Origin: an uncultured virus (IMG/VR IMGVR_UViG_3300043411_001904)
Lineage: Duplodnaviria; Heunggongvirae; Uroviricota; Caudoviricetes
IMG/VR virus record: IMGVR_UViG_3300043411_001904
Length of the DNA: 64,000 nt
Direction: 5' to 3' (one strand)
Below the pieces are notes generated by a model that saw only the letters and a program-made list of their open reading frames with translations, was not told the DNA's origin and made no database searches. The position numbers and the translations under genes are program-made. This document shows, piece after piece, positions 6,648 through 20,746 of the stretch (the stretch's first letter is position 1; each line of letters opens with the position of its first letter).

Positions 6648-7823
6648 CTAAACCTTATCAATATCAAACATACCTAATTTCTTCATACCCAATAAAAGAT
6701 CATTCAAAAGAGGCTGATAAACTTTTTGATTGTCAAAATTATCTTTAATATACAATTTAGTATACATCTGACTTATCTTTTTACAATGATCAACTAATGA
6801 ATTGAAAAGATAGTGTGGTGATTTTTCTGTCTTTGCTTGAAGAAAAGCATACTTTAACTGGTTAGATGTAAAATCAGAAATATCATTTGGTAACATACCC
6901 GCTGATTTCATTTTAGCTAGAGTATAACTCAAATACAGTCCCCAAGATGACTTAACATCATCAATTGATTTAAGATCAATATTCTTAACAGACTCAGGAG
7001 AGTATTTCAATATATGACCAGAGATAACATTCCAAGCTAATTTTTTATCTCCATCGAATTTAGAAGATACTTGGTCCAAAATATCATCCATCATAATAAC
7101 ATTACCTTCCGAAGACGACATCTTCTTACCATCAACCATAACCAACCCAAGACCAATATGATCAATATCAGGAAACAGAGATTTCAATGATTTAAAATGA
7201 TTATCTTGCTCAAATCCAGTTATGTATAAAGTAGACCCATCTAGTTTTTGTGCCAATGTAACATCTTGATAGAAATAGGAACTAGATCCGTCAGATTTAA
7301 TCCCAACAATCTTTGATCCATTAACATCAAAAACAAGAGTACCTTTATACTCTCCAACACCATCTTCAAGAATGGAAGTATTGACTAGCTTTTGTCCGGA
7401 AGCAAAATGAATTGAATCAATTTTATACCCAAATGATTCACAATGAGATTTAAATTTATCCAAGGCATCATCTTGATCAACCTTACCGGACAAAGTATCA
7501 CCTAAAATAGCAATATATTTTTCCCCAATACCTAATGATTGGATAGATTTTGCAAAAATCAAATTGGATAAGTGTCCCAAGTGTAGATGTTTATTCAAAT
7601 TTGGAGAAAATCCATCAACAAATTCATAAACCTTAGGTGATTCAAAAAGATCATATAGATTTTGATCTCCAATTAGAATATTAGTAAATCCACCCGATTT
7701 CTCAGATTCTAATCCCCAATGAGATATCCAATCAGATACTTTCTGATTCGGATCTCCCCATACACAGAAATTAAATCCCATGTTTTTAGGAGTAGTTTTA
7801 ATATCGGATATCTTGATCTTCAT
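6648..7823 (-). CDS. argS: arginyl-tRNA synthetase (compact, Arg-free)
   Basis: SPNLNKHLHLGH (HIGH), KSDG..Y..QD, YITGFEQDNHF, KMSSSEG (KMSKS), GLYLSYTLAK; start at MKIKIS directly after a TATATTTG promoter. Confidence 0.88.
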   Translation of the reverse strand: MKIKISDIKTTPKNMGFNFCVWGDPNQKVSDWISHWGLESEKSGGFTNILIGDQNLYDLFESPKVYEFVDGFSPNLNKHLHLGHLSNLIFAKSIQSLGIGEKYIAILGDTLSGKVDQDDALDKFKSHCESFGYKIDSIHFASGQKLVNTSILEDGVGEYKGTLVFDVNGSKIVGIKSDGSSSYFYQDVTLAQKLDGSTLYITGFEQDNHFKSLKSLFPDIDHIGLGLVMVDGKKMSSSEGNVIMMDDILDQVSSKFDGDKKLAWNVISGHILKYSPESVKNIDLKSIDDVKSSWGLYLSYTLAKMKSAGMLPNDISDFTSNQLKYAFLQAKTEKSPHYLFNSLVDHCKKISQMYTKLYIKDNFDNQKVYQPLLNDLLLGMKKLGMFDIDKV

Positions 7824-7839
7824 GGAACAAATATACGAA

Positions 7840-9258
7840 TTAAATCCGATCGAATAAAATTTGCTTTTTGCCACCCTTTATTAAAAGGTCAATCTCATCA
7901 CATTTCTCTTTTCCAAACAGCGGAACATATAAAGAATTAACAACATTCAATAGATAATCCAAATTTGATAATTGACTAAGATAATCAGTTGATGACCACG
8001 GCTTATTATCATTAATATACTTATTACCAACTTTAACCAACTCATTAGTAAATCTCAAAGCATCTTTTACTTTGAAATTGTTCCAAGATTCTCTCACTTT
8101 TTTATCATATGACAAAACCAAATCAACAAAATCATTTTGAGGATTAACTAGATTCCCTTCACATTTAATATCAACTAGATGGAGGACCCTAGACACCAAA
8201 TTGCCCCAATCATTCACAATTTCAGAGTTCCAAATATTCTTCAAATCGTCCTCATTCCAGGAAGAATCTGAATATGTACTTAGTCCACCCAAAGCATAGT
8301 ATCTAACGGGATACAATCCATATTTATCTAATTGTTCAATAGGATCTATAACATTCCCAATACTTTTGGAAATCTTAAGTCCATTTTTATCTAGAATCGT
8401 ACCATGCACCAATAACTTTCCGGTTTTCTTAATACCTTCAGATTCCAAAAATGATTGAAATATGATAGCCTGAAATCTAAGATTATCAGGACCACAAATC
8501 TGCACCACATCATTCCAATTAAAATTATCTGTTAAATATCCAGCAGCAAATATGTAATTTAATAAGGCCTCCAACCACACGTAAATGATCTGAGAATCAT
8601 CATCGGGCACTGAAATTCCCCAAGGACATTTTTGTACACTTCTAGACACAGATATGTCACCCACATTATCTATTAGATTATATAACTCATCTAATTTCGA
8701 TTTAGGTTCTAAGAAATTAGGATTTTGCTCAATCCAATTCAATAAAGAATTTCGATATTTAGAAATCTTAAAGAAATAATTCTCTTCTTCTATAATTTCA
8801 ATATTTGTTGTAGGATGATCTAAGCATTTACCATCAACTAGATCAGAGTCTTGTTTGTGTGATTCACATCCTTTGCAATATTTTCCTTTGTAAAATCCTT
8901 TATAAATATCTCCGCGATCTACAAACCTAGACCAAATTATCTTAACTTTCTCATGATGGTCGGGATCAGACGTCTTATAAAAGGAATCATACTCAATACT
9001 AAACCGATCACAGAAATCTTTCCAAGTATGTGTTAAATTCTTAATATATTCCGGAGTTGGAATTCCAATCTCTTGAGATTTCTCCCAGACTTTGGCTCCG
9101 TGTTCATCCAAACCAACATTAAAGTGAACATCATCCCCAATACTCTTGAACCATTTAGAGATAGCATCACCAAGAATAAATTCAAAAGCATGGCCAATAT
9201 GAGGAACTGAGTTCACATATGGCAAAGTGGTGGTTATAAATTTGTTTTTGATTTCTAT
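7840..9258 (-). CDS. metG: methionyl-tRNA synthetase (Met-free, no AUG start)
   Basis: KFITTTLPYVNSVPHIGH, GLDEHG, CxxC knuckle, YVWLEAL, KISKSIGN, NDWGNLVSR; start placed at ATA 9258 (alternatives ATT 9267, ATC 9252, TTG 9225). Confidence 0.9.
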   Translation of the reverse strand: MEIKNKFITTTLPYVNSVPHIGHAFEFILGDAISKWFKSIGDDVHFNVGLDEHGAKVWEKSQEIGIPTPEYIKNLTHTWKDFCDRFSIEYDSFYKTSDPDHHEKVKIIWSRFVDRGDIYKGFYKGKYCKGCESHKQDSDLVDGKCLDHPTTNIEIIEEENYFFKISKYRNSLLNWIEQNPNFLEPKSKLDELYNLIDNVGDISVSRSVQKCPWGISVPDDDSQIIYVWLEALLNYIFAAGYLTDNFNWNDVVQICGPDNLRFQAIIFQSFLESEGIKKTGKLLVHGTILDKNGLKISKSIGNVIDPIEQLDKYGLYPVRYYALGGLSTYSDSSWNEDDLKNIWNSEIVNDWGNLVSRVLHLVDIKCEGNLVNPQNDFVDLVLSYDKKVRESWNNFKVKDALRFTNELVKVGNKYINDNKPWSSTDYLSQLSNLDYLLNVVNSLYVPLFGKEKCDEIDLLIKGGKKQILFDRI

Positions 9259-9266
9259 TGATTTAA

Positions 9267-10445
9267 TTAATAACTTACAGGAAATGGAATAACATCATGA
9301 ATTTTCTGACTCTTACAAATATACATTAAAAGCCTTTCAAATCCTAAACCAAAACCTGAATGAACAACTGATCCCCATCTTCTAGTGGACAAATACCAAT
9401 CCATTTTTTGTATATCAATTCCAGAGCTCATAATTTCTGACTTTAGCTTGTCATAATCATCTTCTCTTTGGGAACCACCAACCAATTCTCCAACCTCTGG
9501 AAATATTAAATCGAAACACAAAGCCTTATCACCTTCGGTTTTCATATAAAATGGCTTCAATGACTTTGGATAATGTGTAATGAAAACAGGCAACTTATAC
9601 TTATCTGATATCAATTTTTCAACTTCAGATCCAATATCCTCACCATATTTAACTCCAAATTCTTTGCAAATTTCATCATATGTCCGAACAATCCAATCAG
9701 GATCAACAATTTTTAAATGATCAGATCCAATTCCCAACTGAGAAAATTCATAATCAGATTTAGTAACCACATATCTAATCGTCTTCTTCAAAAAATCCTC
9801 AGTGAATTTAACTGTTTGATCCAAATCGTAAAAAGCCATCTCAGGCTCAATCATCCAAAATTCAGATAAATGTTTCTTAGTTGCTGATTTCTCAGCTCGA
9901 AAACACGGAGAGAATGTATAAATTTTACCCAATGACATCATACCAACTTCACCATGAAGTTGTCCCGACACAGTTAGTTTTTCATCCATCCAATCTGATT
10001 TTACATCAAACGTCTCTCCGGCTCCTTCACAATCAGCATGGGTAATAATCGGGGTATAATATTGATAAAATCCAAAGTCCTCCAAAGTCCTATGGATAGC
10101 TTGTGTCAAATGATGTCTAATCTTCCATGTAGCTTGAAATCCTTTCGTTCTACCCCTTAGTTCAGGAATGGTTCTAAGGTAATCTAATGTGTGATGTTTT
10201 GGTTGAATAGGATAATCATCATCAGAAGAACCAACAATTTCTATTCGAGATGCCAAAAACTCAGGCAGTCCCTTAGGTGTCATTGAATCCATTCCCTGAC
10301 ATATCAGAGACGACCCAACTTTTGGGTCCCCAATGACCACACAATCTCCATCCCTTGCGGTGACTTGGTGATCTCTAGCACCATCTGTAACTGATAGGAA
10401 CATCAATCCCTTTGATTTCCTAACTGATTTTATCCAACCTTTCAT
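9267..10445 (-). CDS. asnS: asparaginyl-tRNA synthetase (Asn-free)
   Basis: OB-fold start (KGWIKSVR), DCEGAGETF, LTVSGQL, FRAEKS..KHLSEFWMIEPE, GELVGGSQRE, GFGLGFERL. Confidence 0.92.
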   Translation of the reverse strand: MKGWIKSVRKSKGLMFLSVTDGARDHQVTARDGDCVVIGDPKVGSSLICQGMDSMTPKGLPEFLASRIEIVGSSDDDYPIQPKHHTLDYLRTIPELRGRTKGFQATWKIRHHLTQAIHRTLEDFGFYQYYTPIITHADCEGAGETFDVKSDWMDEKLTVSGQLHGEVGMMSLGKIYTFSPCFRAEKSATKKHLSEFWMIEPEMAFYDLDQTVKFTEDFLKKTIRYVVTKSDYEFSQLGIGSDHLKIVDPDWIVRTYDEICKEFGVKYGEDIGSEVEKLISDKYKLPVFITHYPKSLKPFYMKTEGDKALCFDLIFPEVGELVGGSQREDDYDKLKSEIMSSGIDIQKMDWYLSTRRWGSVVHSGFGLGFERLLMYICKSQKIHDVIPFPVSY

Positions 10446-11133: not shown

Positions 11134-11136
11134 GTG

Positions 11137-11208
11137 TGACCTCACCGGGAGTCGAACCCAGATCGAAAATTTAGGAAATTTTAATTCTATCCATTGAACT
11201 ATGAGGTC
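11137..11208 (-). tRNA. tRNA-Arg(CCT)
   Basis: cloverleaf GACCTCA..TGAGGTC, anticodon loop TTCCTAA, TTCGACT T-loop. Confidence 0.92.
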
Positions 11209-11378
11209 ATAATTCTATCTATCTTCTGTTCACGAATATAAGACTTTTTATAGACAGGTTGCCAAATTTCCGGATATTTAAGAAATTCTCCCGATGTATA
11301 GGGTTCAAAATCTCCTTTCCTTCTTCCACATCCTGGATATTCTCTAATAAGGACAAATCCTTCGATTTTATCTTTCAT
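11199..11378 (-). CDS. hypothetical protein with C-terminal RxxKI motif
   Basis: IREQKIDRI; stop codon lies inside tRNA-Arg. Confidence 0.6.
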   Translation of the reverse strand: MKDKIEGFVLIREYPGCGRRKGDFEPYTSGEFLKYPEIWQPVYKKSYIREQKIDRIMTS

Positions 11379-11394
11379 ATTGTTAGTATTTTTG

Positions 11395-11480
11395 TACCGG
11401 AGGTTGGAGTCGAACCAACAATAGGAGTAAACCAATCCCCTTATGAGGAGGACACCATTACCACATCGGATCACACCGGC
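11395..11480 (-). tRNA. tRNA with CAT anticodon (Met or Ile2) on a long-variable-arm body
   Basis: TCCTC-CTCATAA-GGGGA; about 15-nt variable region; GTTGG-TTCGACT-CCAAC. Confidence 0.8.
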
Positions 11481-11773
11481 ATTAACTGCAAATTAATCTC
11501 TCTTATTATAATTTTATTATCAATATGTTGATGTTTGTATGATTTAGATATTATTGATCTAAAGGCATTTTCAATTACTGTCTTCTCTTCAGACGAAAAT
11601 TCATTAAAATCTTCACCCAAGCCTGAATTGCCATTATCATCACTGAATATACACTCACCTGTCCACCTTCTATAGATTGAAATATACTTAAAACCGTCTG
11701 TATTGGAATTAAGATCCCAATTTCCATATTGGTTATTTTGAATATCCTTTAGAAATTTTCTAATATTTTTCAT
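11471..11773 (-). CDS. hypothetical protein
   Basis: 100-aa ORF; stop inside the downstream tRNA. Confidence 0.55.
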   Translation of the reverse strand: MKNIRKFLKDIQNNQYGNWDLNSNTDGFKYISIYRRWTGECIFSDDNGNSGLGEDFNEFSSEEKTVIENAFRSIISKSYKHQHIDNKIIIREINLQLMPV

Positions 11774-11984
11774 CGAACACCTTTTCTATTTTTTCTAATC
11801 GTCTCTGTGAGATAAACTTCGTAAAATAAGATACCACTAAAGTAGCAACATATCCTTTAACACTCATATCTAAATTACACTTATCTATATGTAACTTGAC
11901 AAATTCAAAACATTCAGATTTAATTAAATCATCACTAACGTAGTGCCTTTCCGCATATCTATCAATTATATCTTTAATATACAT
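11760..11984 (-). CDS. hypothetical protein with C-terminal RxxKI motif
   Basis: RRLEKIEKVF. Confidence 0.55.
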   Translation of the reverse strand: MYIKDIIDRYAERHYVSDDLIKSECFEFVKLHIDKCNLDMSVKGYVATLVVSYFTKFISQRRLEKIEKVFDEKY

Positions 11985-11988
11985 ATTA

Positions 11989-12531
11989 TTATTTTTTAAG
12001 GTAATAAACAAGAGCACTTTCAGAAAAAAAAGATGGTAAATCTTTATCTGATTTATCAAATTTTATAAAATCAAATTCATTACAAATCCTACTATCTAGT
12101 TCATCTAGTAACTTATTAAATTTTTCTTTTTTTAGAGATAAATTAGACTTAAAATTGGTACTTATACCAATTATAATACTGTATTCAATTTTATGCCTTT
12201 TAAGTTGAATAATCAATGATCGTAAACTGCTTTGATAGTCAATTAATGAGTTCTCATCACTCTGGATACTTGGAGAAGATTGCAAATAATCATTAAGGAT
12301 ATCAAATCTATTAGATGATCCTGTTATAATTTTTTCATCAGTAGAAATAAATATATAATTCGGTTTAGAATCAATAATATATCTAATAATCAACACAAAG
12401 TCATAATCTATACCCTCATCCTCAAGCTCAGAAATAAGAATATCATTGATACTATCAATCGTATCATCAATTATCGGAAGTGTTGATTTAGAAATGTGCT
12501 TTTCAATAAATTTTTCCCATCTATAAATCAT
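11989..12531 (-). CDS. hypothetical late protein (MIYRWEKFIE tag)
   Basis: GATATATA upstream; variant of the N-terminal motif. Confidence 0.6.
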   Translation of the reverse strand: MIYRWEKFIEKHISKSTLPIIDDTIDSINDILISELEDEGIDYDFVLIIRYIIDSKPNYIFISTDEKIITGSSNRFDILNDYLQSSPSIQSDENSLIDYQSSLRSLIIQLKRHKIEYSIIIGISTNFKSNLSLKKEKFNKLLDELDSRICNEFDFIKFDKSDKDLPSFFSESALVYYLKK

Positions 12532-12564
12532 ATCTTATATATCATAAATCAATTTTATTTTTAG

Positions 12565-12637
12565 AGCTAGAACCCAGAATTTAACTGGGATTACGTCATT
12601 ACCAATGACGTGTAATCAACCTTTATACGATTCCAGC
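12565..12637 (-). tRNA. tRNA-Thr(GGT)
   Basis: GCTGGAA..TTCTAGC; CGTCA-TTGGTAA-TGACG. Confidence 0.85.
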
Positions 12638-12910
12638 AATGTCATCTATCTTACTATCCCTGATCTTTTCTATATCATATTTAAATGTATGGAATTGATC
12701 CGAAAATTCTTCTCCATTTTCCATTTTGACTGTTAAAATATCTGAAGTTTGAGACCACATTGACCTAGACATTACCCAAGGACCTTGTGATATACGAATA
12801 ACTTGACCCCTTCTAACTTTTAACCTAAAAGGTATTCCCACCAAAGACCCATCATATTCAGTTCCATTATTCAAAACAAAATCACCTATTCTAAATTTAT
12901 TCTTGTTCAT
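12623..12910 (-). CDS. hypothetical protein with C-terminal RxxKI motif
   Basis: KFRIGD start; IRDSKIDDI end. Confidence 0.6.
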   Translation of the reverse strand: MNKNKFRIGDFVLNNGTEYDGSLVGIPFRLKVRRGQVIRISQGPWVMSRSMWSQTSDILTVKMENGEEFSDQFHTFKYDIEKIRDSKIDDIAGIV

Positions 12911-13002
12911 AACAATTTATCTATTCTACTTTCTCGAAATTTCTGAATATCAAACTCAAACACATAGAAAAAATCCGACAACTTTGAACTTGTTTTCTTC
13001 AT
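12907..13002 (-). CDS. 31-aa micro-ORF ending in RESRIDKLL
   Basis: read by hand: MKKTSSKLSDFFYVFEFDIQKFRESRIDKLL; ATGA overlap with next gene. Confidence 0.45.
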   Translation of the reverse strand: MKKTSSKLSDFFYVFEFDIQKFRESRIDKLL

Positions 13003-13007
13003 TCATG

Positions 13008-13088
13008 TACCTTGGGTGGGAATCGAACCCACACTCCTTTCAGAACGCGATTTTGAGTCGCGGGTGTCTACCGTTCCACCACCAAGGC
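13008..13088 (-). tRNA. tRNA-Leu(CAA)
   Basis: class II cloverleaf; CGCGA-CTCAAAA-TCGCG. Confidence 0.93.
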
Positions 13089-13090
13089 AT

Positions 13091-13435
13091 TTATTCAATA
13101 ATACTATTTATCTTTTTATTTCTTTTAAGTTTATCTAATTCTTCTTTCATTTCTACAGAAGATAAAATCTTCTTAGATGGTAATTGATTATAGGTCAAAA
13201 TATTATCAATTCCTATCCACCATCCGAAAAATATTAATTTGTGAAGAGAACAGTCTAGATATTTATCTCTATCCAAATTAATCACTCCCCGTTTAATTAT
13301 CTTAATCCATATAACTGATGACAGGATGGATAAAAGAGATAATCCAACTAAAATAATTAGAAAATTAACTTGTGATAGGTATATGATAACCCAAAATACA
13401 AAAAGTCCTATAATATCAATTGGATTGATTCTCAT
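13091..13435 (-). CDS. membrane protein with C-terminal RxxKI motif
   Basis: two hydrophobic segments; KRNKKINSII. Confidence 0.6.
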   Translation of the reverse strand: MRINPIDIIGLFVFWVIIYLSQVNFLIILVGLSLLSILSSVIWIKIIKRGVINLDRDKYLDCSLHKLIFFGWWIGIDNILTYNQLPSKKILSSVEMKEELDKLKRNKKINSIIE

Positions 13436-13438
13436 TTG

Positions 13439-13509
13439 AGGTCAGGGTGAGATTTGAACTCACGTACGGGGTTTTGCAGACCCCTGCCTCGCCTCTCGGC
13501 CACCTGACC
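13439..13509 (-). tRNA. tRNA-Cys(GCA)
   Basis: GGGGT-CTGCAAA-ACCCC; U73. Confidence 0.93.
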
Positions 13510-13511
13510 AA

Positions 13512-14231
13512 TTAAGTCTCTAATATAGTAAATTTATTATTCCACCAACAGGGAATATAATTATTAATTTTACAATGTTCAATAAGTGATTTTTTCTTCT
13601 CATCAACAGTTAAAAAATATAATGGTCTTGAGTATTTATTAGTAGGATTTTTACTTATAACAGATTTACACTCACACAAATAAATTTTTCCATTACTATC
13701 TTTTATTATAAAGTCGGGAGTATATCTCCTGATTTTACCATCATATAAGTATTCTATGTGGTCATAAAATCTATCCAACTCGATAACACTGTAATTTTTA
13801 CAAAAGAATGTAAGGAAATTAAATTCCAATTTTGAATCACATCTTACGGATTTTCCATCAAATATAAATTCACATCTAATCGAATTAAACGAGAATTTAC
13901 CCTCAGATCTAGCTTTGGTAGATTTTATTGAAGCATTGGTTCTATAAGACTCATTTTCCCAAGTTCTTTTTATTGAACAACTATGGGAACACGTCTTTTG
14001 ATTTCTTTTACTAAAAGTAACAATGAAATCTCTACTACAATAAAGACAAATTTTGTTAATTTTTGGATTTCCAGAATTCTTTTTTAGAAGAGTTTTACTA
14101 ACCTTAGTATTTATCTCCAATCTCTTATTTCTTGTTGAAAACGATCTAGAACAAACACGAGAGCAAAACTCTCCACTTGAATATTGACTATATTTCATTC
14201 CATCTTTTTCTCCACAATTTTTACAAATCAT
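13512..14231 (-). CDS. Zn-finger plus TnsA-like PD-(D/E)XK endonuclease (putative homing endonuclease)
   Basis: CxxC..CSxxC repeats; DSKLE..YTPDF..ECK. Confidence 0.75.
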   Translation of the reverse strand: MICKNCGEKDGMKYSQYSSGEFCSRVCSRSFSTRNKRLEINTKVSKTLLKKNSGNPKINKICLYCSRDFIVTFSKRNQKTCSHSCSIKRTWENESYRTNASIKSTKARSEGKFSFNSIRCEFIFDGKSVRCDSKLEFNFLTFFCKNYSVIELDRFYDHIEYLYDGKIRRYTPDFIIKDSNGKIYLCECKSVISKNPTNKYSRPLYFLTVDEKKKSLIEHCKINNYIPCWWNNKFTILET

Positions 14232-14274
14232 AAGATATATATCAAATTCGAACCTCTACCTTATCGTATTTTAG

Positions 14275-14345
14275 TACCCCAAGGTGAAATCGAATCACCA
14301 CCTTCACTACGTCAAAGTGATACGCTACCACTACGCCATTGGGAT
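14275..14345 (-). tRNA. tRNA-Val(GAC)
   Basis: TCACT-TTGACGT-AGTGA. Confidence 0.88.
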
Positions 14346-14346
14346 G

Positions 14347-14445
14347 TGGTGAACTAGATTGGAATTGAACCAACTTTTGCGACCGTAATGGTCGCCGTAG
14401 ACCGACTATCCACTTCATGTGGCGGACCATTACTACCTCTAGCTC
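14347..14445 (-). ncRNA. tRNA-like RNA with hairpin inserted in the D-loop, non-canonical anticodon loop and encoded CCA
   Basis: GAGCTAG/CTAGTTC-ACCA acceptor; GTAG/CTAC D-stem enclosing CCAC-ATGAA-GTGG; GCGACC-ATTAC-GGTCGC. Confidence 0.7.
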
Positions 14446-14448
14446 TAG

Positions 14449-14531
14449 AAGCGGGAATCAGATTCGAACTGATGTTCTCTTTCGAGTTAGGGCTTATGAG
14501 GCCCCTGGTACCATCTCCAGTCGATCCCGCG
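14449..14531 (-). tRNA. initiator-like tRNA-Met(CAT) with extra variable hairpin
   Basis: C1:U72 mismatch; GGGC-CTCATAA-GCCC; CTC-GAAA-GAG extra arm. Confidence 0.75.
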
Positions 14532-14563
14532 ATTTAATTATACAAGTATAGTAAAATTTGTTG

Positions 14564-14634
14564 TACCCCGAGATGAATTCGAATCATCACCTCCGCCATG
14601 TAAAAACGGAACGCTACCATTACGCCATCGGGGC
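14564..14634 (-). tRNA. tRNA-Val(TAC)
   Basis: CCGTT-TTTACAT-GGCGG. Confidence 0.88.
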
Positions 14635-14639
14635 ATTAG

Positions 14640-14725
14640 TGATTCTGGTAGGAATCGAACCTACGTTAACCTATTCGGCCTTCCGGTTGTAAGCCGGACG
14701 TTCTTAACCACTGAACTACAGAATC
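14640..14725 (-). tRNA. tRNA-Val(TAC) with long variable arm
   Basis: TCCGG-CTTACAA-CCGGA; GGCC-GAATA-GGTT extra arm. Confidence 0.8.
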
Positions 14726-14730
14726 ATAAA

Positions 14731-14808
14731 GGAAAGAAAATTTAACAGAGTTGTTTTTTCGATTACAAATTAGAAGTTTGTTGAAGTATCTCTATTAGTC
14801 ACTATTCC
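14731..14808 (-). ncRNA. hairpin ncRNA between tRNAs (possible Y-RNA-like)
   Basis: GGAA/TTCC and TAATAGAG/CTCTGTTA stems; no ORF. Confidence 0.4.
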
Positions 14809-14813
14809 TCTTG

Positions 14814-14888
14814 TTGGATCAAATGGATTCGAACCATTGGCCTTCCCAATCTTGTTAGGGACGTTCTTCCTGACTGAACTACAATCCA
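14814..14888 (-). tRNA. tRNA-like gene, undetermined anticodon
   Basis: intact acceptor, D and T arms; enlarged loop TAACAAGATT. Confidence 0.7.
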
Positions 14889-14894
14889 ATTTTG

Positions 14895-14971
14895 TTGCGA
14901 CGAATGGATTTGAACCACTGACCTTTCCCCTAATAAGGTGGGAATGCTCTCCCTGACTGAGCTACATCGCA
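14895..14971 (-). tRNA. tRNA-like gene, undetermined anticodon (10-nt loop)
   Basis: TTCCC-ACCTTATTAG-GGGAA with intact other arms. Confidence 0.7.
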
Positions 14972-14974
14972 GTA

Positions 14975-15361
14975 TTAATTTATTTGATTATCTGATCTAA
15001 AATGTCTTCGTGGGTCTATATCAAAATCATCCGGATCTTCAATTTTTTCAACATTTTTAGATTTCTTCTTAGCTAAAGAAATCACTTTCTTTATAAGCCT
15101 TTTACTAACTTCCAATTCCTTATCTTCTAGGTACATTGAATAAGAATTAGAAAAAAATGGATCAAAAAAAGATATTAAAACAACTAAAAACTCATAATTA
15201 CCTATCCCGAATTTCCAACTTTCTGATTTAGTCATACTAGGCATATAACTAGAATAACTATAATTTTTCAAATTATTCTTTGGATCTTTAAGTTGTTGTA
15301 TCAACTCTTCAACAATGTCATCATCTTTTTTCTTGGAAAAGAAACTTTCTAAATATTTCAT
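14975..15361 (-). CDS. hypothetical late protein (MKYLESF tag)
   Basis: TAATATATA just upstream. Confidence 0.65.
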   Translation of the reverse strand: MKYLESFFSKKKDDDIVEELIQQLKDPKNNLKNYSYSSYMPSMTKSESWKFGIGNYEFLVVLISFFDPFFSNSYSMYLEDKELEVSKRLIKKVISLAKKKSKNVEKIEDPDDFDIDPRRHFRSDNQIN

Positions 15362-15431
15362 TATCCTATATATTATTTCTGAAACTTATTCACCTAGTAG
15401 TTTGAATTTCTTCAGGGACCACTAGGAATTG

Positions 15432-15503
15432 AGGATTCACTCGAACTCGAATCGAGGACACATGGGTACGAATCACGTATTTTTCCGACTAAACTATGAA
15501 TCC
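15432..15503 (-). tRNA. tRNA-Thr(CGT)
   Basis: GGATTCA..TGAATCC; loop TTCGTAC. Confidence 0.82.
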
Positions 15504-15504
15504 A

Positions 15505-16161
15505 TTAATAACTTTTATCTTCATTATACCTAACCATTCTAGAATGTCTCCCTTTACCCCTGTTCAAAGATTTGTAAGTTGGAGTCAATGAATGACAATT
15601 TGGACACAATAATTTCAAATTAGATAAATCATTATTTTCTGAATTTCCATCAATATGTTCTATTTCGATTGGAACCTTTCCTGTTGTCAGATTAATTTGA
15701 CACCATCCACAATCCATACATTTATTACCATGTGTTTTAATCAGATATTTTTTAATCGACCTACTAGAACCATTTCCACTTACAATTATTAAATTTCTTA
15801 ATTCTTCTTTATGTAAATCATTGCAATTCTTTGAACAATATTTAACATTCCCCTTACCAATTATCTCAGAGTCACAAACTACACATTTCAATCTCCACTT
15901 CACTCGGGTCCTATTAACATTAATAGCTGAACATCTTCTGCTACAAAACTTTCTACCATCTGAAACAATACATTTAAATTCCTTATTACAATTTTCACAT
16001 TTAACTGTTTCTCTTTTAGAGTCATAGAATTTTGATGAAATAGATAACTTTGATTTAATTCTAACTATTGTAGATCTAGAAACTCCCAATTCCTTAGAAA
16101 TTCTAAAATTTGACATCCCCTGATCAACTAACTCAAATACATCAGCCCATAATTTTTCCAT
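15505..16161 (-). CDS. HNH homing endonuclease with HTH and Zn fingers
   Basis: ISKELGVSRSTI HTH; EHIDGNSENN..NLKLLCPNCH. Confidence 0.9.
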   Translation of the reverse strand: MEKLWADVFELVDQGMSNFRISKELGVSRSTIVRIKSKLSISSKFYDSKRETVKCENCNKEFKCIVSDGRKFCSRRCSAINVNRTRVKWRLKCVVCDSEIIGKGNVKYCSKNCNDLHKEELRNLIIVSGNGSSRSIKKYLIKTHGNKCMDCGWCQINLTTGKVPIEIEHIDGNSENNDLSNLKLLCPNCHSLTPTYKSLNRGKGRHSRMVRYNEDKSY

Positions 16162-16206
16162 ACCCTATATATTCAGAAGTGTGAGCTTCCCTTGGAAAGG
16201 GAGTAG

Positions 16207-16294
16207 AGCCGGGAGTGGGATTCAAACCCACGATGGTCGCTTTCGCTATACTAACTTACAAGGTTAGGGCCTTCGTTCTCTTGGCTATCCCGGC
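16207..16294 (-). tRNA. tRNA-Thr(TGT) with long variable arm
   Basis: CTAAC-CTTGTAA-GTTAG; GC-GAAA-GC extra arm. Confidence 0.8.
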
Positions 16295-16309
16295 AATTAT
16301 TTAATAATG

Positions 16310-16657
16310 CTATTTACCTTTCTCTCTATTAAGTCTAACTTCATTCTCTGGAAAAAGAATAACACAGTTAAGAGGATTTTTATAATCTATAGTTTGCCAA
16401 GTTCCATTTTTCCTGACATGGGGAATACCACATTCCTTTAAAACATTAGATATCTTAATATACTCATTACTTAGTATATCAACTACATTAGTGTCTTTAT
16501 TATAATCATATTCTATACCTTCCTCGTCAAGAAATTGTATTAGCTTATCAACATCACCATTTGAAGAATCATAATATCCCGTATAGGGATTAGGTTCTGT
16601 CATAAGTATAGGAGCATTTTCATTAACAACAAAAGAATCAAATTTTTTAATATTCAT
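16310..16657 (-). CDS. hypothetical protein (MNIKKFDSF tag)
   Basis: recurrent N-terminal motif. Confidence 0.65.
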   Translation of the reverse strand: MNIKKFDSFVVNENAPILMTEPNPYTGYYDSSNGDVDKLIQFLDEEGIEYDYNKDTNVVDILSNEYIKISNVLKECGIPHVRKNGTWQTIDYKNPLNCVILFPENEVRLNREKGK

Positions 16658-16672
16658 ATTTTCTATATTTAT

Positions 16673-16897
16673 TTATCCTATTCCATTACTATTTTCTAAT
16701 TCTTCAAGAGAATCATATCGACCAATAACATCCAAGTCCGGATCTAGAAAATAGAATTTTTCATCATCCACTCCATATCCAATGTATTCAACATACCCAT
16801 CCCTTTCAGGATCAAAGATATCGATAATCATAATGGTTTCATCTTTAACAAAATCTCCAACAGTTATCTTCTCTAAGAATTTTTTCAGGTGCTTCAT
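16673..16897 (-). CDS. hypothetical protein (MKHLKKFLE tag)
   Basis: recurrent N-terminal motif. Confidence 0.65.
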   Translation of the reverse strand: MKHLKKFLEKITVGDFVKDETIMIIDIFDPERDGYVEYIGYGVDDEKFYFLDPDLDVIGRYDSLEELENSNGIG

Positions 16898-16901
16898 TGG
16901 T

Positions 16902-17123
16902 TTAATTATTTTGAGTAAGTCTACCGGATTCTATCAATTTCAGAACCTTTCTTTTAGTGAATCGATAAGCAGTAGCTCCTTCCATAAATCTTTCTTGAAA
17001 TTGCATTGATTTCGCTTCCTTAGCAGAATCATCCATTATTTTGATCATTGAATCAAGCCAATCAACGATATTTTGATTATCTAATAGATATAGATATTTC
17101 TTATCTGATAATTCATTTTTCAT
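16902..17123 (-). CDS. hypothetical protein
   Basis: TAATATATA upstream. Confidence 0.55.
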   Translation of the reverse strand: MKNELSDKKYLYLLDNQNIVDWLDSMIKIMDDSAKEAKSMQFQERFMEGATAYRFTKRKVLKLIESGRLTQNN

Positions 17124-17138
17124 ATTCTATATATTAAG

Positions 17139-17210
17139 AGGTCAATGTTGGAATCGAACCAACCTTCAAGAGTTTGCAATTCTTGACCTAAGCCACTCGG
17201 ACACTTGACC
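17139..17210 (-). tRNA. tRNA-Cys(GCA)
   Basis: loop TTGCAAA; U73. Confidence 0.85.
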
Positions 17211-17212
17211 AT

Positions 17213-17407
17213 TTAAATACCCTTAGACAATTTTAGTCTATTTCTAAGTTCTTCTTCTTCAAAATCCCCACCAAAATCAGAAATATGATTATATCTCTTT
17301 AATCTATCAATAATTTGATCAATTGATAGATTATCATATCTCTCATCAGCCTTAACAAGACGTTCAAGAATATCAACTCTCCAATCTATCCAATTTGGTC
17401 TTTTCAT
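17213..17407 (-). CDS. hypothetical protein
   Basis: 64-aa ORF in packed run. Confidence 0.5.
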   Translation of the reverse strand: MKRPNWIDWRVDILERLVKADERYDNLSIDQIIDRLKRYNHISDFGGDFEEEELRNRLKLSKGI

Positions 17408-17411
17408 GATT

Positions 17412-17612
17412 CTACCAAATAGCTGCCCACATAGGTAGAGAAATACCCGTTACTTTCTTAAGTACATCATGATCAGCAACTTCATCATATTGATGAGAAT
17501 CAATCACCTCTAGCTCTTCTTCATTCAAAGAATCAATTATGTTGATATCATTATGATTAAGCGAACTTAATAGTTGCGAACGCCTTTCCTCTGTAAGATT
17601 GTTATCAAACAT
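17412..17612 (-). CDS. hypothetical protein
   Basis: 66-aa ORF downstream of a TATATTTG promoter. Confidence 0.5.
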   Translation of the reverse strand: MFDNNLTEERRSQLLSSLNHNDINIIDSLNEEELEVIDSHQYDEVADHDVLKKVTGISLPMWAAIW

Positions 17613-17671
17613 AATAAATTTTATAATTAGACGACAAATATATCAAATAACTTTCATAAAAACAATTCTTG

Positions 17672-17749
17672 TCGGTGGAAAGAGATTCGAACTCTTATTT
17701 TCAACCAATTACCTTACTCCTGCATATCAGACAGGGTGGATACCCACCG
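17672..17749 (-). ncRNA. D-armless tRNA-like RNA with GAT anticodon
   Basis: CGGTGGG/TCCACCG acceptor; no D hairpin; CCTGT-CTGATAT-GCAGG; long variable segment; AAGAG-TTCGAAT-CTCTT. Confidence 0.7.
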
Positions 17750-17753
17750 AAAT

Positions 17754-17818
17754 TGGGATTGGGCCTTTAACCACTTTACAACAGTATCTGTTGAACTAGA
17801 CATCGAACCTAGATCCCA
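17754..17818 (-). ncRNA. circularly permuted tRNA-like RNA (YrlA/Y-RNA-like order)
   Basis: TGGGAT/ATCCCA closing stem; T-arm, then closed hairpin, then AGTGGTTAA D-like loop. Confidence 0.5.
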
Positions 17819-17820
17819 TG

Positions 17821-17894
17821 TTGGCCTGGTCGGTAACGATCCGACTACCTCGAAATTATCAGTTTCGCGCTCTAACCATCTGAGCTACAAGCCA
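17821..17894 (-). tRNA. tRNA-Ile(GAT)
   Basis: CGAAA-CTGATAA-TTTCG. Confidence 0.9.
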
Positions 17895-17953
17895 AAATTG
17901 ATAGATCCAAACCTCTTTAATGGAGGACCTTTCTATCTTTAGGTTTTTTAATC

Positions 17954-18301
17954 TTAAAAATCTAGTGTAACTTTATTCCTTTCATTTAGAACGAAAATTG
18001 TCGTGTTGGAATATGATTCACCTGATGGATGAGCCATCACAACATAATATCCACCAGATTCTCCCATAAACAATTGTTCACCTTTCGCAGAATACGATGA
18101 AATTGTATAATCATAATAGTCATCACAATTTCCATCTGTAAATATTCGTAAATTATCGGAATATTTACCCGATCCTATCCCCCAAGGAGAATCATTTTTC
18201 TCAACTGGAGAATTATTATAACTATCATATCCAATCAGTTTCATAATATCCTTATGAACAACTTTGGATTCTTTAATGTGGTTTAGAACTTTTTCAATCA
18301 T
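17954..18301 (-). CDS. hypothetical protein
   Basis: 115-aa ORF after a TATATTTG promoter. Confidence 0.6.
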   Translation of the reverse strand: MIEKVLNHIKESKVVHKDIMKLIGYDSYNNSPVEKNDSPWGIGSGKYSDNLRIFTDGNCDDYYDYTISSYSAKGEQLFMGESGGYYVVMAHPSGESYSNTTIFVLNERNKVTLDF

Positions 18302-18342
18302 TTTACAAATATAAGAAAATATTCTAAATCTTCACAATTATG

Positions 18343-18415
18343 CGGGTCCAATAGGGTACGATCCTATAATGTCTGATTAACAGTCAGAAGTGATGTCCGT
18401 TTTCACCATAGACCC
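18343..18415 (-). tRNA. tRNA-Asn(GTT)
   Basis: TCTGA-CTGTTAA-TCAGA; G73. Confidence 0.88.
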
Positions 18416-18440
18416 ATTTTTATTCGAACCAACGATTTTG

Positions 18441-18526
18441 AGGGGATGGAGAATTACGATATCTCGACCCTCGTTTTAACAGAACGACGCTCTCGGACCG
18501 AAGTCACACCTCTGAGCTACATCCCC
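18441..18526 (-). tRNA. tRNA with GTT (Asn) anticodon and a UUCG hairpin inserted in the D-loop
   Basis: GCTC..GAC-TTCG-GTC..GAGC; TCGTT-CTGTTAA-AACGA; U73. Confidence 0.78.
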
Positions 18527-18650
18527 AAAATTTTATTTATAATTGTGTCAATACTATCAGACCTAAAACACCCTTTAGTTATCTCAATGGAATTGGCTGA
18601 GATTGCCAACACTCATAATCAGGGGACGGTGACACCCAACCACCCAAACA

Positions 18651-18860
18651 TCACCGTCCCCGATAATACGTCTTCAAAAAATCAAGTAATTCCAAGAAAT
18701 AAAATATCACAATACATCCAATCACATAAATAGGCCAAAATATAGATTTAAGAAGTCCATATTTAGTTTCTGTAAAAACACTTGAGATAAATGCCATAGT
18801 TCCAAATACTGAATAAATCAATACTCCAATAACCAATAGTATTATACTTAATGTACTCAT
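18651..18860 (-). CDS. small membrane protein
   Basis: two hydrophobic helices; SIFWP motif. Confidence 0.6.
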   Translation of the reverse strand: MSTLSIILLVIGVLIYSVFGTMAFISSVFTETKYGLLKSIFWPIYVIGCIVIFYFLELLDFLKTYYRGR

Positions 18861-19066
18861 TATCTTGCTCCACCAGCTGTCATTTTATCCGAGGCATCTT
18901 TGAAGAACTTAGCCAAGTCCTTCAAATCAACTCCTGTTATCAGAATATTCGTATTAGAGTATCCAAAAAACCCGAAATCAATATGAATATATCCATACTC
19001 ATCAACTTTAAACTTAAATCCTCCGTTATCAACGTGGAAGTATTTTTCATGAATTATCTTCTCCAT
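18860..19066 (-). CDS. hypothetical protein
   Basis: TAATG coupling to next gene. Confidence 0.55.
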   Translation of the reverse strand: MEKIIHEKYFHVDNGGFKFKVDEYGYIHIDFGFFGYSNTNILITGVDLKDLAKFFKDASDKMTAGGAR

Positions 19067-19079
19067 ATTTATTATTTTG

Positions 19080-19149
19080 CTCCATCAATAGGATTCGAAC
19101 CTATACCTCCGAGATAAATCTCGGTGTGCCACCGTGACACCACAATGAA
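19080..19149 (-). tRNA. tRNA-like gene with collapsed anticodon loop
   Basis: CCGAGA-TTTA-TCTCGG; other arms intact. Confidence 0.7.
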
Positions 19150-19226
19150 TAGAGAATAAACCCTTCTACCAAAAAAGATTTACTCTCAAGAGATTGGACA
19201 ATTGGTAGACAACCCGCCACTCTTTG

Positions 19227-19299
19227 TAGTCCCACCGGGATTCGAACCCAGACCCATTGTTTAGAAGACAATGACGCTTTCCAGTTACGCCATGGAACC
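19227..19299 (-). tRNA. tRNA-Arg(TCT)
   Basis: ATTGT-CTTCTAA-ACAAT. Confidence 0.92.
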
Positions 19300-19309
19300 A
19301 TGTTTGTTG

Positions 19310-19393
19310 TCCAAGAGGAAGGATTCGAACCTCCGTAAAAGATCCACAAACGCAAATCGTTGTGAAAATTGACTTCCAATAGTCTACTCTCGG
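19310..19393 (-). tRNA. tRNA-like gene with extended anticodon arm
   Basis: CCGAGAG/CTCTTGG acceptor; D and T arms present; TTCACAA..TTGTGGA long arm. Confidence 0.65.
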
Positions 19394-19426
19394 TTAATTA
19401 TAATACAAATATACTAAAAAATAATT

Positions 19427-20134: not shown

Positions 20135-20188
20135 AAGTTCAAGTCGTTTATCTATATATATTAAATAAATAACTCGAACTTTTTCTAG

Positions 20189-20278
20189 TACCTCAGGTCG
20201 GAGTCGAACCGACAGCGTTTACCACGAGGGTCTGCGCTCCTAAGGCGCAGGTGTTTCATCCAGTTTCACCACTGAGGC
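20189..20278 (-). tRNA. tRNA-Leu(TAG)
   Basis: TGCGC-CTTAGGA-GCGCA; long variable arm. Confidence 0.92.
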
Positions 20279-20287
20279 AAATAAATT

Positions 20288-20427
20288 AGAAATATCTCCC
20301 AACCTCCGCGGTTAGTCAATTATACACACTCATGACTACTAGATCTAGACTCGCGAATCTAGAACCTCACCATGAACACATAACACTCTTACCCACCTGA
20401 TCAGGGTCGTCATCATAAGAGATTTCT
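20288..20427 (-). ncRNA. unclassified rod-like structured RNA of about 140 nt
   Basis: AGAAATCTC..GAGATATTTCT closing stem; TCTAGATTC/GAGTCTAGA apical stem. Confidence 0.5.
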
Positions 20428-20431
20428 TCAG

Positions 20432-20513: not shown

Positions 20514-20521
20514 ATATATTT

Positions 20522-20741: not shown

Positions 20742-20746
20742 ATATG

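Follow-up and report, generated by a model that had tools for sequence, protein, structure and literature searches.

How is translation initiated on a methionyl-tRNA synthetase (MetRS) gene whose reading frame offers no ATG, GTG or TTG at its beginning? The question is raised by the metS gene in 64,000 nucleotides of DNA from an uncultured virus (IMG/VR record IMGVR_UViG_3300043411_001904). This whole stretch is referred to here as the window; it belongs to a phage, which probably infects Bacteroidota. The features needed first are as follows.

9267..10445, minus strand: asnS, asparaginyl-tRNA synthetase gene with an ATG start (Pfam PF00152)
9295..9297, minus strand: in-frame TGA closing the metS frame upstream
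7840..9258, minus strand: metS, predicted Met-codon-free methionyl-tRNA synthetase gene, from the area of ATA 9258 and ATC 9252 to the stop TAA at 7842..7840
9217..9243, minus strand: stretch coding for the first Rossmann-fold strand, K-F-I-T-T-T-L-P-Y, placed by structure alignment and synonymous-only changes
6648..7823, minus strand: argS-like gene with its ATG at 7823 (Pfam PF00750)

The metS gene and its absent start codon

The metS product is predicted to be a class Ia methionyl-tRNA synthetase by homology of its catalytic domain. It matches Pfam PF09334 (E 7.9e-70; 236 bits against a cut-off of 20.1) and the solved chain PDB 2csx_A (E 4.6e-79, residues 7–430). The HIGH motif is present (PHIGHAF), with KISKS in place of KMSKS; this replacement of Met by Ile occurs in all 69 Met-free sequences of the tree set, at a position where other class I enzymes tolerate a non-Met residue. 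The protein is short, divergent and without a C-terminal appended domain, and it scores below the NCBIfam equivalog cut-offs (NF008900, 376 bits against 598; TIGR00398, 320 bits against 336), so the name MetRS rests on the Pfam and PDB homology.

Counted from ATC 9252, the coding length is 470 codons, none of which is ATG, and the same trinucleotide is found 37 times out of frame. The avoidance therefore acts on codons, and avoidance of ATG as a DNA word was rejected. Between the TGA at 9297..9295 and the TTG at 9225 the frame has 23 codons with no ATG, GTG or TTG. After the TGA it reads TGT TAT TCC ATT TCC TGT AAG TTA TTA ATT(9267), followed by AAA TCA ATA(9258) GAA ATC(9252) AAA AAC AAA and then by TTT ATA ACC ACC ACT TTG(9225) CCA TAT GTG(9216) AAC.

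Chance alone could well yield 23 codons devoid of a start codon; this run carries weight because the conserved strand FITTTLPY sits inside it. The strand aligns to residues 5–13 of solved MetRS chains, and in the F-I-T-T-T-L-P columns all differences among six close loci are synonymous. Since the strand is conserved, translation of metS must begin upstream of it. The original prediction had described a frame free of Met codons, with no ATG, GTG or TTG between the previous in-frame stop and TTG 9225 and with the strand KFITTTLPY upstream of that first TTG, and had deduced a non-canonical initiation. The reading of the frame agrees with all of this, and the coordinates it gave for the start region were correct.

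An assembly error or a decaying pseudogene could also produce such a gene, and one window alone might hold an ATG-to-ATA error. A contig from the probable source sample, however, is identical over 8700..9800 at a depth of 15, and a 229-base contig from a run of a different study is identical over 9147..9375. Read support at this point had been suggested as a check by the original prediction, and in these matching sequences, which are assembled contigs and not raw reads, no ATG variant was seen at the metS start. The absence is also shared by 12 distinct loci, including a curated phage genome of 634,780 bases, whose reading frames run uninterrupted for about 470 codons and include the HIGH and KISKS motifs. 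Pairwise dN/dS values of 0.054 (loci L001 and L083), 0.09 (L088 and L164) and 0.12 (L094 and L098) indicate that the metS genes are under purifying selection. An error or a pseudogene is hardly credible as the explanation; the absence of the start codon is real. An alternative genetic code was likewise rejected. Reassignment of TGA rescues no start, given that L001 and L083 have TAA as their upstream stop and that table 11 yields full-length synthetases.

Start codons of the relatives and candidates in the window

Alignment of the orthologue starts, also proposed by the original prediction, showed the absence to be conserved and recurrent. The comparison covered 61 distinct related DNA loci. 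In 12 of these the segment from the upstream stop to the strand is free of ATG, GTG and TTG, and each of the 12 encodes a MetRS body without Met. They include the GenBank huge phage LR745206.1 (634,780 bases), presumably a genome from Al-Shayeb et al. 2020, which carries the same type of MetRS as the window. Every one of the 37 loci with at least one Met codon keeps ATG, GTG or TTG; a canonical start is also retained by 12 further loci whose available portion, a complete gene in only 4 cases, contains no Met. A scan of viral contigs with a degenerate DNA pattern added one locus, which has an ATG start.

Database proteins gave the same picture. After filtering, 93 of 120 were kept: 40 are Met-free with a gene call that starts at PYVN, the absent canonical start being here deduced from the gene calls and not from DNA; 19 are Met-free with a full N-terminus; 34 contain Met and have a full N-terminus; and none contains Met with a truncated call. 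On a neighbour-joining tree (Biopython), Fitch parsimony gave about 15 changes of start state, as a rough count. Loss of the start codon is conserved, has arisen repeatedly and is confined to Met-free bodies. The original prediction had named an ATG at position 9258 in close relatives as evidence against it; distant relatives do have ATG or TTG there, but the closest ones (66–85% identity) do not.

The codons at which translation might begin are the following.

9265..9267, minus strand: ATT within TAATT, where it overlaps the stop of asnS; weakest of the candidates
9256..9258, minus strand: ATA, homologous to the ATG or TTG start of relatives (the ancestral start position)
9250..9252, minus strand: ATC, the best comparative candidate, GAA ATC being invariant in the close loci
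9214..9225, minus strand: TTG 9225 and GTG 9216, canonical codons chosen by ORF finders and gene callers, rejected here

GAA ATC is identical in all six distinct close loci (the window, L001, L083, L085, L088 and L164). A single codon is used in 5 of 22 invariant-Ile columns, and the column of ATC 9252 alone is fixed as ATC; as background, the close loci have 51 codon-invariant columns among 257 invariant-residue columns. At the position of ATA 9258 relatives read M/L-E-I, and this ancestral start codon is ATA in the window, L088, L164 and L095, whereas the close kin L001, L083 and L085 hold CTA, TTA and CTG, each a different codon. ATT 9267 was rejected as a start, having no conserved counterpart in the relatives. 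Other subgroups have ATA or ATT at other positions, and in L094 the sole in-frame near-cognate codon is the ATA of F-I-T-T-T, with none before the Phe codon, so a single start rule does not fit every locus. Judged from these comparisons, the metS start most likely lies at ATC 9252 or ATA 9258, with ATC ranked the likelier.

The protein might instead start at TTG 9225 or GTG 9216 and be functional without the first strand, an outcome that the original prediction had accepted as contrary to its own claim. Gene callers do pick such a start, both in the window (protein P0001 begins at the Val codon) and in about 40 relatives, and TAT GTG AAC TCA is identical in six of six close loci. Beyond these, however, the Val codon is GTA in L095, L098 and L156 and GCC in L109, and the Leu codon is CTA, TTA or CTT in other start-less loci, so that neither TTG nor GTG is conserved as such. 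This start would also remove the conserved first strand, which lies upstream and varies by synonymous changes only; solved MetRS folds include it, with merely 4–5 residues before it. A downstream start is thus very improbable, and initiation upstream of the strand is retained in what follows.

Coupling to asnS, promoter-like boxes and the leader

How ribosomes reach these codons was considered next to the sequence elements around the asnS end.

9316..9323, minus strand: TATATTTG box within the 3′ end of asnS, which might serve as an internal metS promoter, 57 nt before ATA 9258
7828..7835, minus strand: TATATTTG box 4 nt before the argS ATG, a leaderless geometry

The asnS stop TAA (9269..9267) overlaps ATT 9267, with ATA 9 nt and ATC 15 nt further on, so in the window metS could be started at any of the three by ribosomes that have just terminated on asnS, as had been proposed originally. 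In the closest relative the proteins P0002 (85% identity) and P0121 (93%) come from the same contig of 30,470 bases, and the adjacency of asnS and metS is therefore probably shared. Against this proposal, a promoter-like TAnnTTTG box precedes metS in the start-less L001, L085, L088, L094, L095, L098 and L156, at 37–38 nt from the Phe codon in six of them and at 47 nt in L094; in 9 of 11 loci such a box is found 35–38 nt before the Phe codon. In the two loci whose flanking genes were read, asnS is not adjacent (L001 has an opposite-strand gene and L164 a ValRS-like gene). Since start-less relatives have their own box directly upstream of metS, coupling to asnS is not the general mechanism and cannot account for the missing start codon. 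Even after reinitiation the first codon must still be decoded, which means that coupling explains delivery and not decoding, and the box inside asnS could give metS a separate transcript. Reinitiation in the window is therefore quite improbable, and the metS start would need no coupling to asnS.

Frameshifting was rejected in both of its forms. The asnS frame ends at the TAA and, read on, would meet a TAG three codons further, and in seven of the seven boxed start-less loci the predicted transcript has no canonical start in any frame from which an upstream short frame could begin.

The TATATTTG box occurs 19 times in the window, always on the minus strand, against 9.5 copies expected, and it also precedes metS in relatives. 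Its distance to the ATG is 3–5 nt for argS and five other window genes, and its distance to the candidate start of the relatives' metS is 14–23 nt, the transcription starts being predicted. In F. johnsoniae transcription starts 4–5 nt after the TAnnTTTG −7 element, and upstream adenines substitute for a Shine-Dalgarno sequence (Baez 2019, PMC6847099). The −7 box before metS in relatives is that of the leaderless and short-leader mRNAs of Bacteroidetes described in the cited passages. Unlike a leaderless mRNA, the metS mRNA has a predicted leader of about 10–18 nt, with no AUG at or near the 5′ end. Bacteroidia are thought, in the discussion of the same paper, to depend heavily on AUG in the absence of Shine-Dalgarno sequences (Baez 2019, PMC6847099), which makes a weak metS start codon harder to accept.

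No conserved RNA structure was found near the metS start with RNAalifold on 11 loci (−2.27 kcal/mol, no covariation); the sole structure was a small invariant hairpin within the coding region, and an IRES-like element is therefore unsupported. A search of 10 relatives' metS loci against Rfam returned nothing relevant. ARAGORN found no tmRNA in the window and neither tRNA nor tmRNA in 11 relatives' loci. Locus L109 has a T-loop-like fragment just upstream of metS.

Cognate-free synthetases and decoding of the first codon

The neighbours of metS lack their own amino acids too. The asnS product (NCBIfam TIGR00457, 385 bits against a cut-off of 343) has no Asn in 392 residues (background 6.5%; composition log10 P = −11.4), with AAY codons 0 times in frame and 39 times out of frame. 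The argS-like product has no Arg in 391 residues (background 4.0%; log10 P = −7.2), its Arg codons being found 0 times in frame and 42 times out of frame, and the metS product has no Met in 470 residues (background 1.73%). The same is seen in 91 of 120 AsnRS homologues (no Asn) and in 72 of 120 ArgRS homologues (no Arg). In LR745206.1, IleRS has no Ile in 735 residues, a ValRS-like protein has no Val and AspRS has no Asp. The MetRS, AsnRS and ArgRS of the window thus present a cognate depletion that is also conserved.

Alves and Savageau reportedly described in 2005 a cognate bias of amino-acid biosynthetic enzymes. Such a bias in these enzymes is also treated in a later work (Fasani and Savageau 2014, PMC4209129). 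As in the cognate bias outlined there, the phage synthetases are poor in the amino acid that they supply and so could be made when it is scarce. The bias, as described in the cited passages, is a statistical depletion in cellular biosynthetic enzymes, whereas in the phage synthetases the absence is complete; it is kept over 50–90% sequence divergence and in MetRS reaches the start codon. Our literature search found no report of a complete purge of cognate residues or of a start-codon loss linked to it.

A tRNA gene array lies directly upstream of the synthetase cluster and includes tRNA-Asn(GTT) and tRNA-Arg(CCT, TCT).

11136..20837, minus strand: tRNA gene array, 22 genes by ARAGORN
11394..11480 and 14448..14531, minus strand: two atypical CAT tRNAs in the array, found by ARAGORN and not by Rfam

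Rfam supports 18 of the 22 genes, neither CAT tRNA among them. The one at 14448..14531 looks initiator-like by eye and is unsupported by the Rfam tRNA model. The tRNA-Ile(GAT) at 17820..17894 was considered as a phage initiator with an Ile anticodon and was rejected, its 1:72 end being paired and its anticodon stem lacking a run of G:C pairs.

Huge phages encode up to 15 synthetases per genome, those with genomes above 634 kb have predicted Bacteroidetes hosts, and the phages were proposed to aminoacylate tRNA variants of their own (Al-Shayeb et al. 2020, PMC7162821). The main text passages of that paper on these enzymes mention neither their amino-acid composition nor their start codons.

We therefore consider it probable that metS is a working, translated, cognate-free gene of a large phage that starts non-canonically at ATC 9252 or ATA 9258. 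It would belong to a set of phage synthetases stripped of every codon for their own amino acid (MetRS, AsnRS and ArgRS), and in MetRS the purge would extend to the start codon. Translation would begin on a short, A-rich leader without a Shine-Dalgarno sequence, most likely at ATC 9252 or else at ATA 9258, and not at ATT 9267, TTG 9225 or GTG 9216. The first codon may be read by an imperfectly paired initiator fMet-tRNA, as at the rare AUU, AUA and AUC starts, and this near-cognate start would make metS expression low or conditional. The cognate-free design may let each synthetase be made in an infected cell that is short of the corresponding charged tRNA, and the shared start absence suggests that MetRS is built for production at methionine-tRNA scarcity.

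As to which tRNA reads the first codon, reading by the initiator as a near-cognate is our default, held tentatively and with close to half of our confidence; a Met-independent start receives a clearly smaller share, and another or unknown route the rest. Several observations bear against a near-cognate fMet start. In several loci the ancestral position is CTA, TTA, CTG or CTT, codons in which no more than one or two bases can pair with a CAU anticodon. Nor is there an obvious rationale, if fMet-tRNA remains in use, for Met-free bodies and start loss to be so strictly linked.

Near-cognate starts have precedents. In E. coli, infC and pcnB start with AUU, and NCBI table 11 lists ATT, ATC and ATA as starts; the odd start codon of infC serves the autoregulation of IF3. 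Like these genes, metS would open with an AUH codon, and the start feature is conserved among orthologues. Unlike in infC, the start of metS has been lost recurrently, different codons occupy the ancestral position (ATA, CTA, TTA, CTG, CTT), the loss is confined to enzymes without any internal Met codon, and the type of host, which lacks Shine-Dalgarno sequences, is thought to lean heavily on AUG.

In a Met-independent initiation, an elongator Ile- or Leu-tRNA would decode the first codon (ATA, ATC, CTA, TTA, CTG or CTT) in the P site, or the start would follow some other route that bypasses the initiator. MetRS would then be made without any Met-tRNA, preferentially when the charged initiator is scarce, as a feedback that restores Met-tRNA charging. 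The distribution of the losses fits this possibility: among sequences that contain Met, 0 of 37 loci and 0 of 34 proteins lack a canonical start, against 12 of 24 loci without Met in their available portion and 40 of 59 proteins that are Met-free. The loss is also recurrent (15 changes by parsimony) under strong purifying selection. The ancestral position is an Ile or Leu codon in 9 of the 11 loci read (L154 left out), and the related L001, L083 and L085 hold three different Leu codons there, but this Leu-synonymous pattern rests on two changes, with a chance of about 0.2. The complete absence of the cognate residue in other synthetases, such as the IleRS, speaks for selection against even a single cognate codon. 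On the other hand, ATG or TTG is kept in the other 12 of the 24 loci, including 4 complete genes, so a Met start is tolerated. The tRNA-Ile(GAT) of the window lacks initiator features, no conserved structure that could place the ribosome was found by RNAalifold in the 11 loci, and fMet-tRNA would still be required to start all other phage proteins. We know of no natural bacterial or phage gene that depends on an elongator-tRNA start. A precedent exists in E. coli deprived of three of its four initiator tRNA genes, which initiates with elongator tRNAs (Samhita et al. 2013, cited in PMC7949028). There the ribosomes start with non-initiator tRNAs at initiator scarcity, the condition for which a Met-free MetRS seems built; that case, in the cited account, is a laboratory reporter phenotype of mutants. 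Weighing both sides, we regard a Met-independent initiation, with the feedback that it would provide, as unlikely, and the near-cognate reading by the initiator tRNA remains our default. It is equally doubtful that the phage MetRS is translated from its short A-rich leader without any methionine, its first codon being read by an Ile- or Leu-tRNA or an initiator-free route.

Met-charged tRNA starts every protein, and an enzyme that restores this charging faces a chicken-and-egg problem, by which the metS gene family appears to have been shaped. The removal of all Met codons and of the canonical start are linked strictly and repeatedly in evolution, which provides a simple signature in the sequence for recognising phage synthetases that are built to operate despite a failing host supply. 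In practice, gene callers mis-annotate about 40 of these MetRS genes, with truncated N-termini. A Met-independent MetRS, if true, would stand at the centre of a phage translation set able to bootstrap itself, every synthetase being made without its own product, and its gene would be the first natural one of bacterial type to start without fMet-tRNA. The metS gene thus offers a naturally occurring case in which to ask whether fMet-tRNA is dispensable for initiation by bacterial ribosomes.

The metS frame and its relatives

Three synthetase genes adjoin on the minus strand of the window:

9267-10445, minus strand: asnS, from ATG 10445 to TAA 9269..9267, encoding AsnRS (392 residues)
stop at 7842..7840, minus strand: metS, encoding MetRS
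6648-7823, minus strand: argS-like, from ATG 7823 to the stop 6650..6648, encoding an ArgRS-like protein (391 residues)

The in-frame stop preceding metS is TGA 9297..9295, and none of the 23 codons that follow it, up to TTG 9225, is ATG, GTG or TTG; ATT 9267, ATA 9258 and ATC 9252 are all present among them. The conserved N-terminal strand K-F-I-T-T-T-L-P-Y (9243..9217; Phe codon at 9240) is upstream of both TTG 9225 and GTG 9216, the starts chosen by gene callers, and the strand's counterpart in solved MetRS chains begins at residues 5-6, with just 4-5 residues before it. Reading of the frame confirmed the original prediction that metS has no canonical start upstream of this strand, with the candidate codons as it placed them. 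The KMSKS motif of this MetRS is KISKS.

Sequence error as the cause was ruled out, since a 229-base contig from the run of a different study is identical to the window over 9147..9375. A contig of the probable source run (depth 15) is also identical over 8700..9800; support at the site, which the prediction had asked for, thus comes from assembled contigs of two runs, not raw reads.

Orthologue DNA, drawn from genome, metagenome, viral and GenBank collections, gave 61 distinct loci (L-numbers) spanning the MetRS N-terminus.

Start codons and Met content at the 61 loci
No ATG, GTG or TTG from the upstream stop to the strand: 12 loci, 12 of 12 with 0 Met in the body (8 complete genes)
ATG or TTG start retained, 0 Met in the part seen: 12 loci (4 complete)
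At least one Met: 37 loci, canonical start in 37 of 37 (31 complete)

The first class comprises the window, L001, L083 (with the near-identical L084 and L085), L088, L094, L095, L098, L109, L152, L154, L156 and L164 (GenBank LR745206.1), so that the proposed alignment of orthologue starts revealed a recurrent absence, always in Met-free genes. Database proteins repeated the pattern. After removal of 27 that showed no recognisable HIGH motif within their first 80 residues or whose body fell short of 400 residues, 93 of 120 remained: 40 Met-free with a gene call starting at PYVN or NSVPH, 19 Met-free with a full N-terminus, and 34 with Met and a full N-terminus; none of the 93 combined Met with a shortened call. 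A truncated call meant a missing canonical start in all five protein and DNA pairs (window, L001, L164, L088, L094). On a neighbor-joining tree of 125 MetRS bodies, seven protein/locus duplicates among them, Fitch parsimony gave a rough count of 15 changes for the start state and seven for the Met-free state. Judged from this tree and the alignments, start loss clearly arose or reverted many times, confined to the Met-free part of the tree, and is bound to the Met-free design. In six more distant loci (L103, L105, L106, L107, L111 and L114) the MetRS frame has no stop for at least 29 more codons upstream of the strand (IQITPSLVAEIIRTKG...), which may be an appended N-terminal domain.

Promoter boxes, host and upstream context

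The window is a phage, encoding a phage lysozyme, PhoH and collagen-like proteins, with a GOLLD RNA at 30733-31125 on the minus strand (252 bits; gathering score 150). The octamer TATATTTG occurs 19 times, always on the minus strand, against 9.5 copies expected, and stands 3-5 nt ahead of ATG in six genes, argS included:

2123-2130, 7828-7835, 18306-18313, 28062-28069, 39791-39798 and 60514-60521, all minus strand: TATATTTG near ATG

It fits TAnnTTTG, the -7 promoter element of Bacteroidetes. In Flavobacterium johnsoniae, according to Baez 2019 (PMC6847099), transcription starts 4-5 nt past this element and upstream adenines replace Shine-Dalgarno sequences. Leaderless mRNAs are predicted for the six genes. 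The best annotated MetRS relative is that of LR745206.1 (71% identity), from an uncultured phage 634,780 bases in length; this kinship, the Bacteroidetes-type box and the Bacteroidetes hosts that Al-Shayeb et al. predict for phages with genomes above 634 kb make a Bacteroidota host likely. Three host-envelope-like genes fit a Gram-negative, possibly Bacteroidota, host:

36594-38711: TonB-dependent receptor plug domain
36062-36589: nicotinamide mononucleotide transporter
53097-53618: OmpH-like chaperone

Re-initiation coupled to asnS termination had been offered as a cause of the missing start. L001, L085, L088, L094, L095, L098 and L156 carry a TAnnTTTG box 37-47 nt ahead of the Phe codon, and the ATG-start relatives L086, L089 and L163 have the same geometry (35-37 nt). 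In all seven boxed loci without a canonical start, ATG, GTG and TTG are absent from every frame of the predicted transcript before the Phe codon, which excludes frameshifting from an upstream start; in L001 the upstream gene is on the opposite strand. Since these relatives have their own box and no upstream start, re-initiation cannot account for the missing start. Within the window itself, ribosome delivery to metS may be aided by asnS termination 9-15 nt upstream, and a TATATTTG box within asnS (9316..9323) may provide metS with a transcript of its own.

No conserved RNA structure at the metS start was found among the loci compared, nor any tRNA, tmRNA or Rfam element beside metS in relatives. 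In L109 (~1000-1040), an acceptor-like strand comes after a T-loop-like sequence and reaches to ~45 nt upstream of the Phe codon of metS, with no tRNA call by ARAGORN or Rfam.

Translated strand and position of the first codon

Between lineages both devoid of a canonical start, dN/dS was 0.054 for L001-L083 (dS 0.81), 0.09 for L088-L164 and 0.12 for L094-L098, and these low values indicate that such genes work. In six close loci the codons of F-I-T-T-T-L-P vary only synonymously (TTT/TTC, ACC/ACA, ACT/ACA, TTG/CTA/TTA, CCA/CCG/CCT), so the strand is translated. The Leu codon matching TTG 9225 is CTA, TTA or CTT in other loci, and the Val codon matching GTG 9216 is GTA in L095, L098 and L156 and GCC in L109. 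Both gene-caller choices were rejected, because these codons are not kept elsewhere and the strand upstream is translated. The stretch TAT GTG AAC TCA (9205-9219, minus strand) is identical in six of six loci (window, L001, L083, L085, L088, L164), in contrast with saturated synonymous sites elsewhere; an ATG-TGA out of frame lies within it, and its pairing with ACATA in the His-Ile codons can form a small invariant hairpin.

The relatives that keep a canonical start begin M-E-I... or L(TTG)-E-..., so the ancestral start aligns with ATA 9258.

Codon at the ancestral start position
ATA: window, L088, L164, L095
CTA: L001
TTA: L083/L084
CTG: L085
CTT: L098/L156
ATC: L152
something like ACT or AAT: L094, L109

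GAA ATC, with ATC two codons downstream of this position, is identical in six of six distinct close loci, and GCA comes next in five of five. A single codon is kept in 51 of 257 invariant-residue columns of the close loci and in 5 of 22 invariant-Ile columns, the 9252 position being the only one fixed as ATC. L083 and L085 differ little through the gene (pS 0.003), yet have different ancestral start codons and are unrelated farther than ~12 nt upstream of GAA ATC, so the conserved unit starts about there. The three candidates therefore fared differently: invariant ATC 9252 is the best candidate on these alignments, ATA 9258, at the ancestral but variable site, is second, and ATT 9267 had no conserved counterpart among the relatives compared. 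The rule for ATC is not universal; L098, L156 and L109 carry ATT directly before the Phe codon, and L094 lacks any in-frame near-cognate codon ahead of Phe. Taken together, metS translation evidently begins before Phe 9240, with a non-canonical first codon behind a short A-rich leader, and does not depend on asnS.

Cognate-free synthetases and initiation

From ATC 9252 to its stop, metS has 470 codons and no in-frame ATG, with 37 ATG trinucleotides out of frame; cognate codons number 0 in frame vs 39 out of frame in asnS and 0 vs 42 in argS-like. The three most extreme zero counts among 80 window ORFs are those of these enzymes, each for its own amino acid: AsnRS (log10 P -11.4, background 6.5%), ArgRS-like (-7.2, 4.0%) and MetRS (-3.5, 1.73%). 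Asn is absent from 91 of 120 AsnRS homologues and occurs once in 19; Arg is absent from 72 of 120 ArgRS-like homologues and occurs once in 17. Except for two AsnRS calls, these homologues begin with M.

Synthetases of LR745206.1, read from loci L177, L164, L170 and L171
IleRS (L177 1048-3252): 735 aa, 0 Ile; NCBIfam 674 bits, cut-off 621
ValRS-like, short (L164 3893-5221): 443 aa, 0 Val
AspRS (L170 1144-2442): 433 aa, 0 Asp; 474 bits, cut-off 353
AsnRS: 392 aa, 0 Asn
ArgRS-like: 392 aa, 0 Arg
LeuRS-like: 422 aa, 18 Leu, not cognate-free

The window's GluRS-like protein (27278-28057, minus strand, 260 residues) is not cognate-free either (E 7, Q 5); it is a GluRS/GlnRS catalytic domain only, its start arranged TATATTTG-N4-ATG. 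The amino acids of the other enzymes remain in each cognate-free synthetase; the design strips only an enzyme's reliance on its own product. Full-text searches found no report of start-codon-less MetRS genes or of synthetases without their cognate residue, and the synthetase lists in the supplements to Al-Shayeb et al. might bear on this; cognate bias among biosynthetic enzymes (PMC4209129) is the nearest known concept.

Of the 23 minus-strand tRNA genes that ARAGORN called in the window, 22 form an array at 11136-20837 and one is at 32017-32104; 18 are backed by Rfam, but two CAT tRNAs (11394-11480, 14448-14531) had no support from Rfam's tRNA model. The window's tRNA-Ile(GAT) is elongator-like. 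Several tRNAs (Met, Val, Thr, Ala) are 84-92 nt with long extra arms, and the calls include a tRNA-Stop(tta) at 14894-14971 and one with a two-base anticodon at 19079-19149.

On a conservative reading, imperfect pairing of initiator fMet-tRNA with AUC or AUA would start metS and make MetRS expression low or conditional, which leaves unexplained why only Met-free enzymes lost the start. An elongator Ile- or Leu-tRNA starting metS when the initiator is scarce would account for that tie, and a review (PMC7949028) describes laboratory precedent in initiator-depleted E. coli. We nevertheless consider this start unlikely. The cognate-free design would allow each synthetase to be made in an infected cell that is short of the enzyme's own charged tRNA. 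Such scarcity could stem from cleavage of tRNAs, from host shut-off or from phage tRNAs that are poorly charged by host enzymes, and Al-Shayeb et al. (PMC7162821) suggest that phages charge their own tRNA variants.
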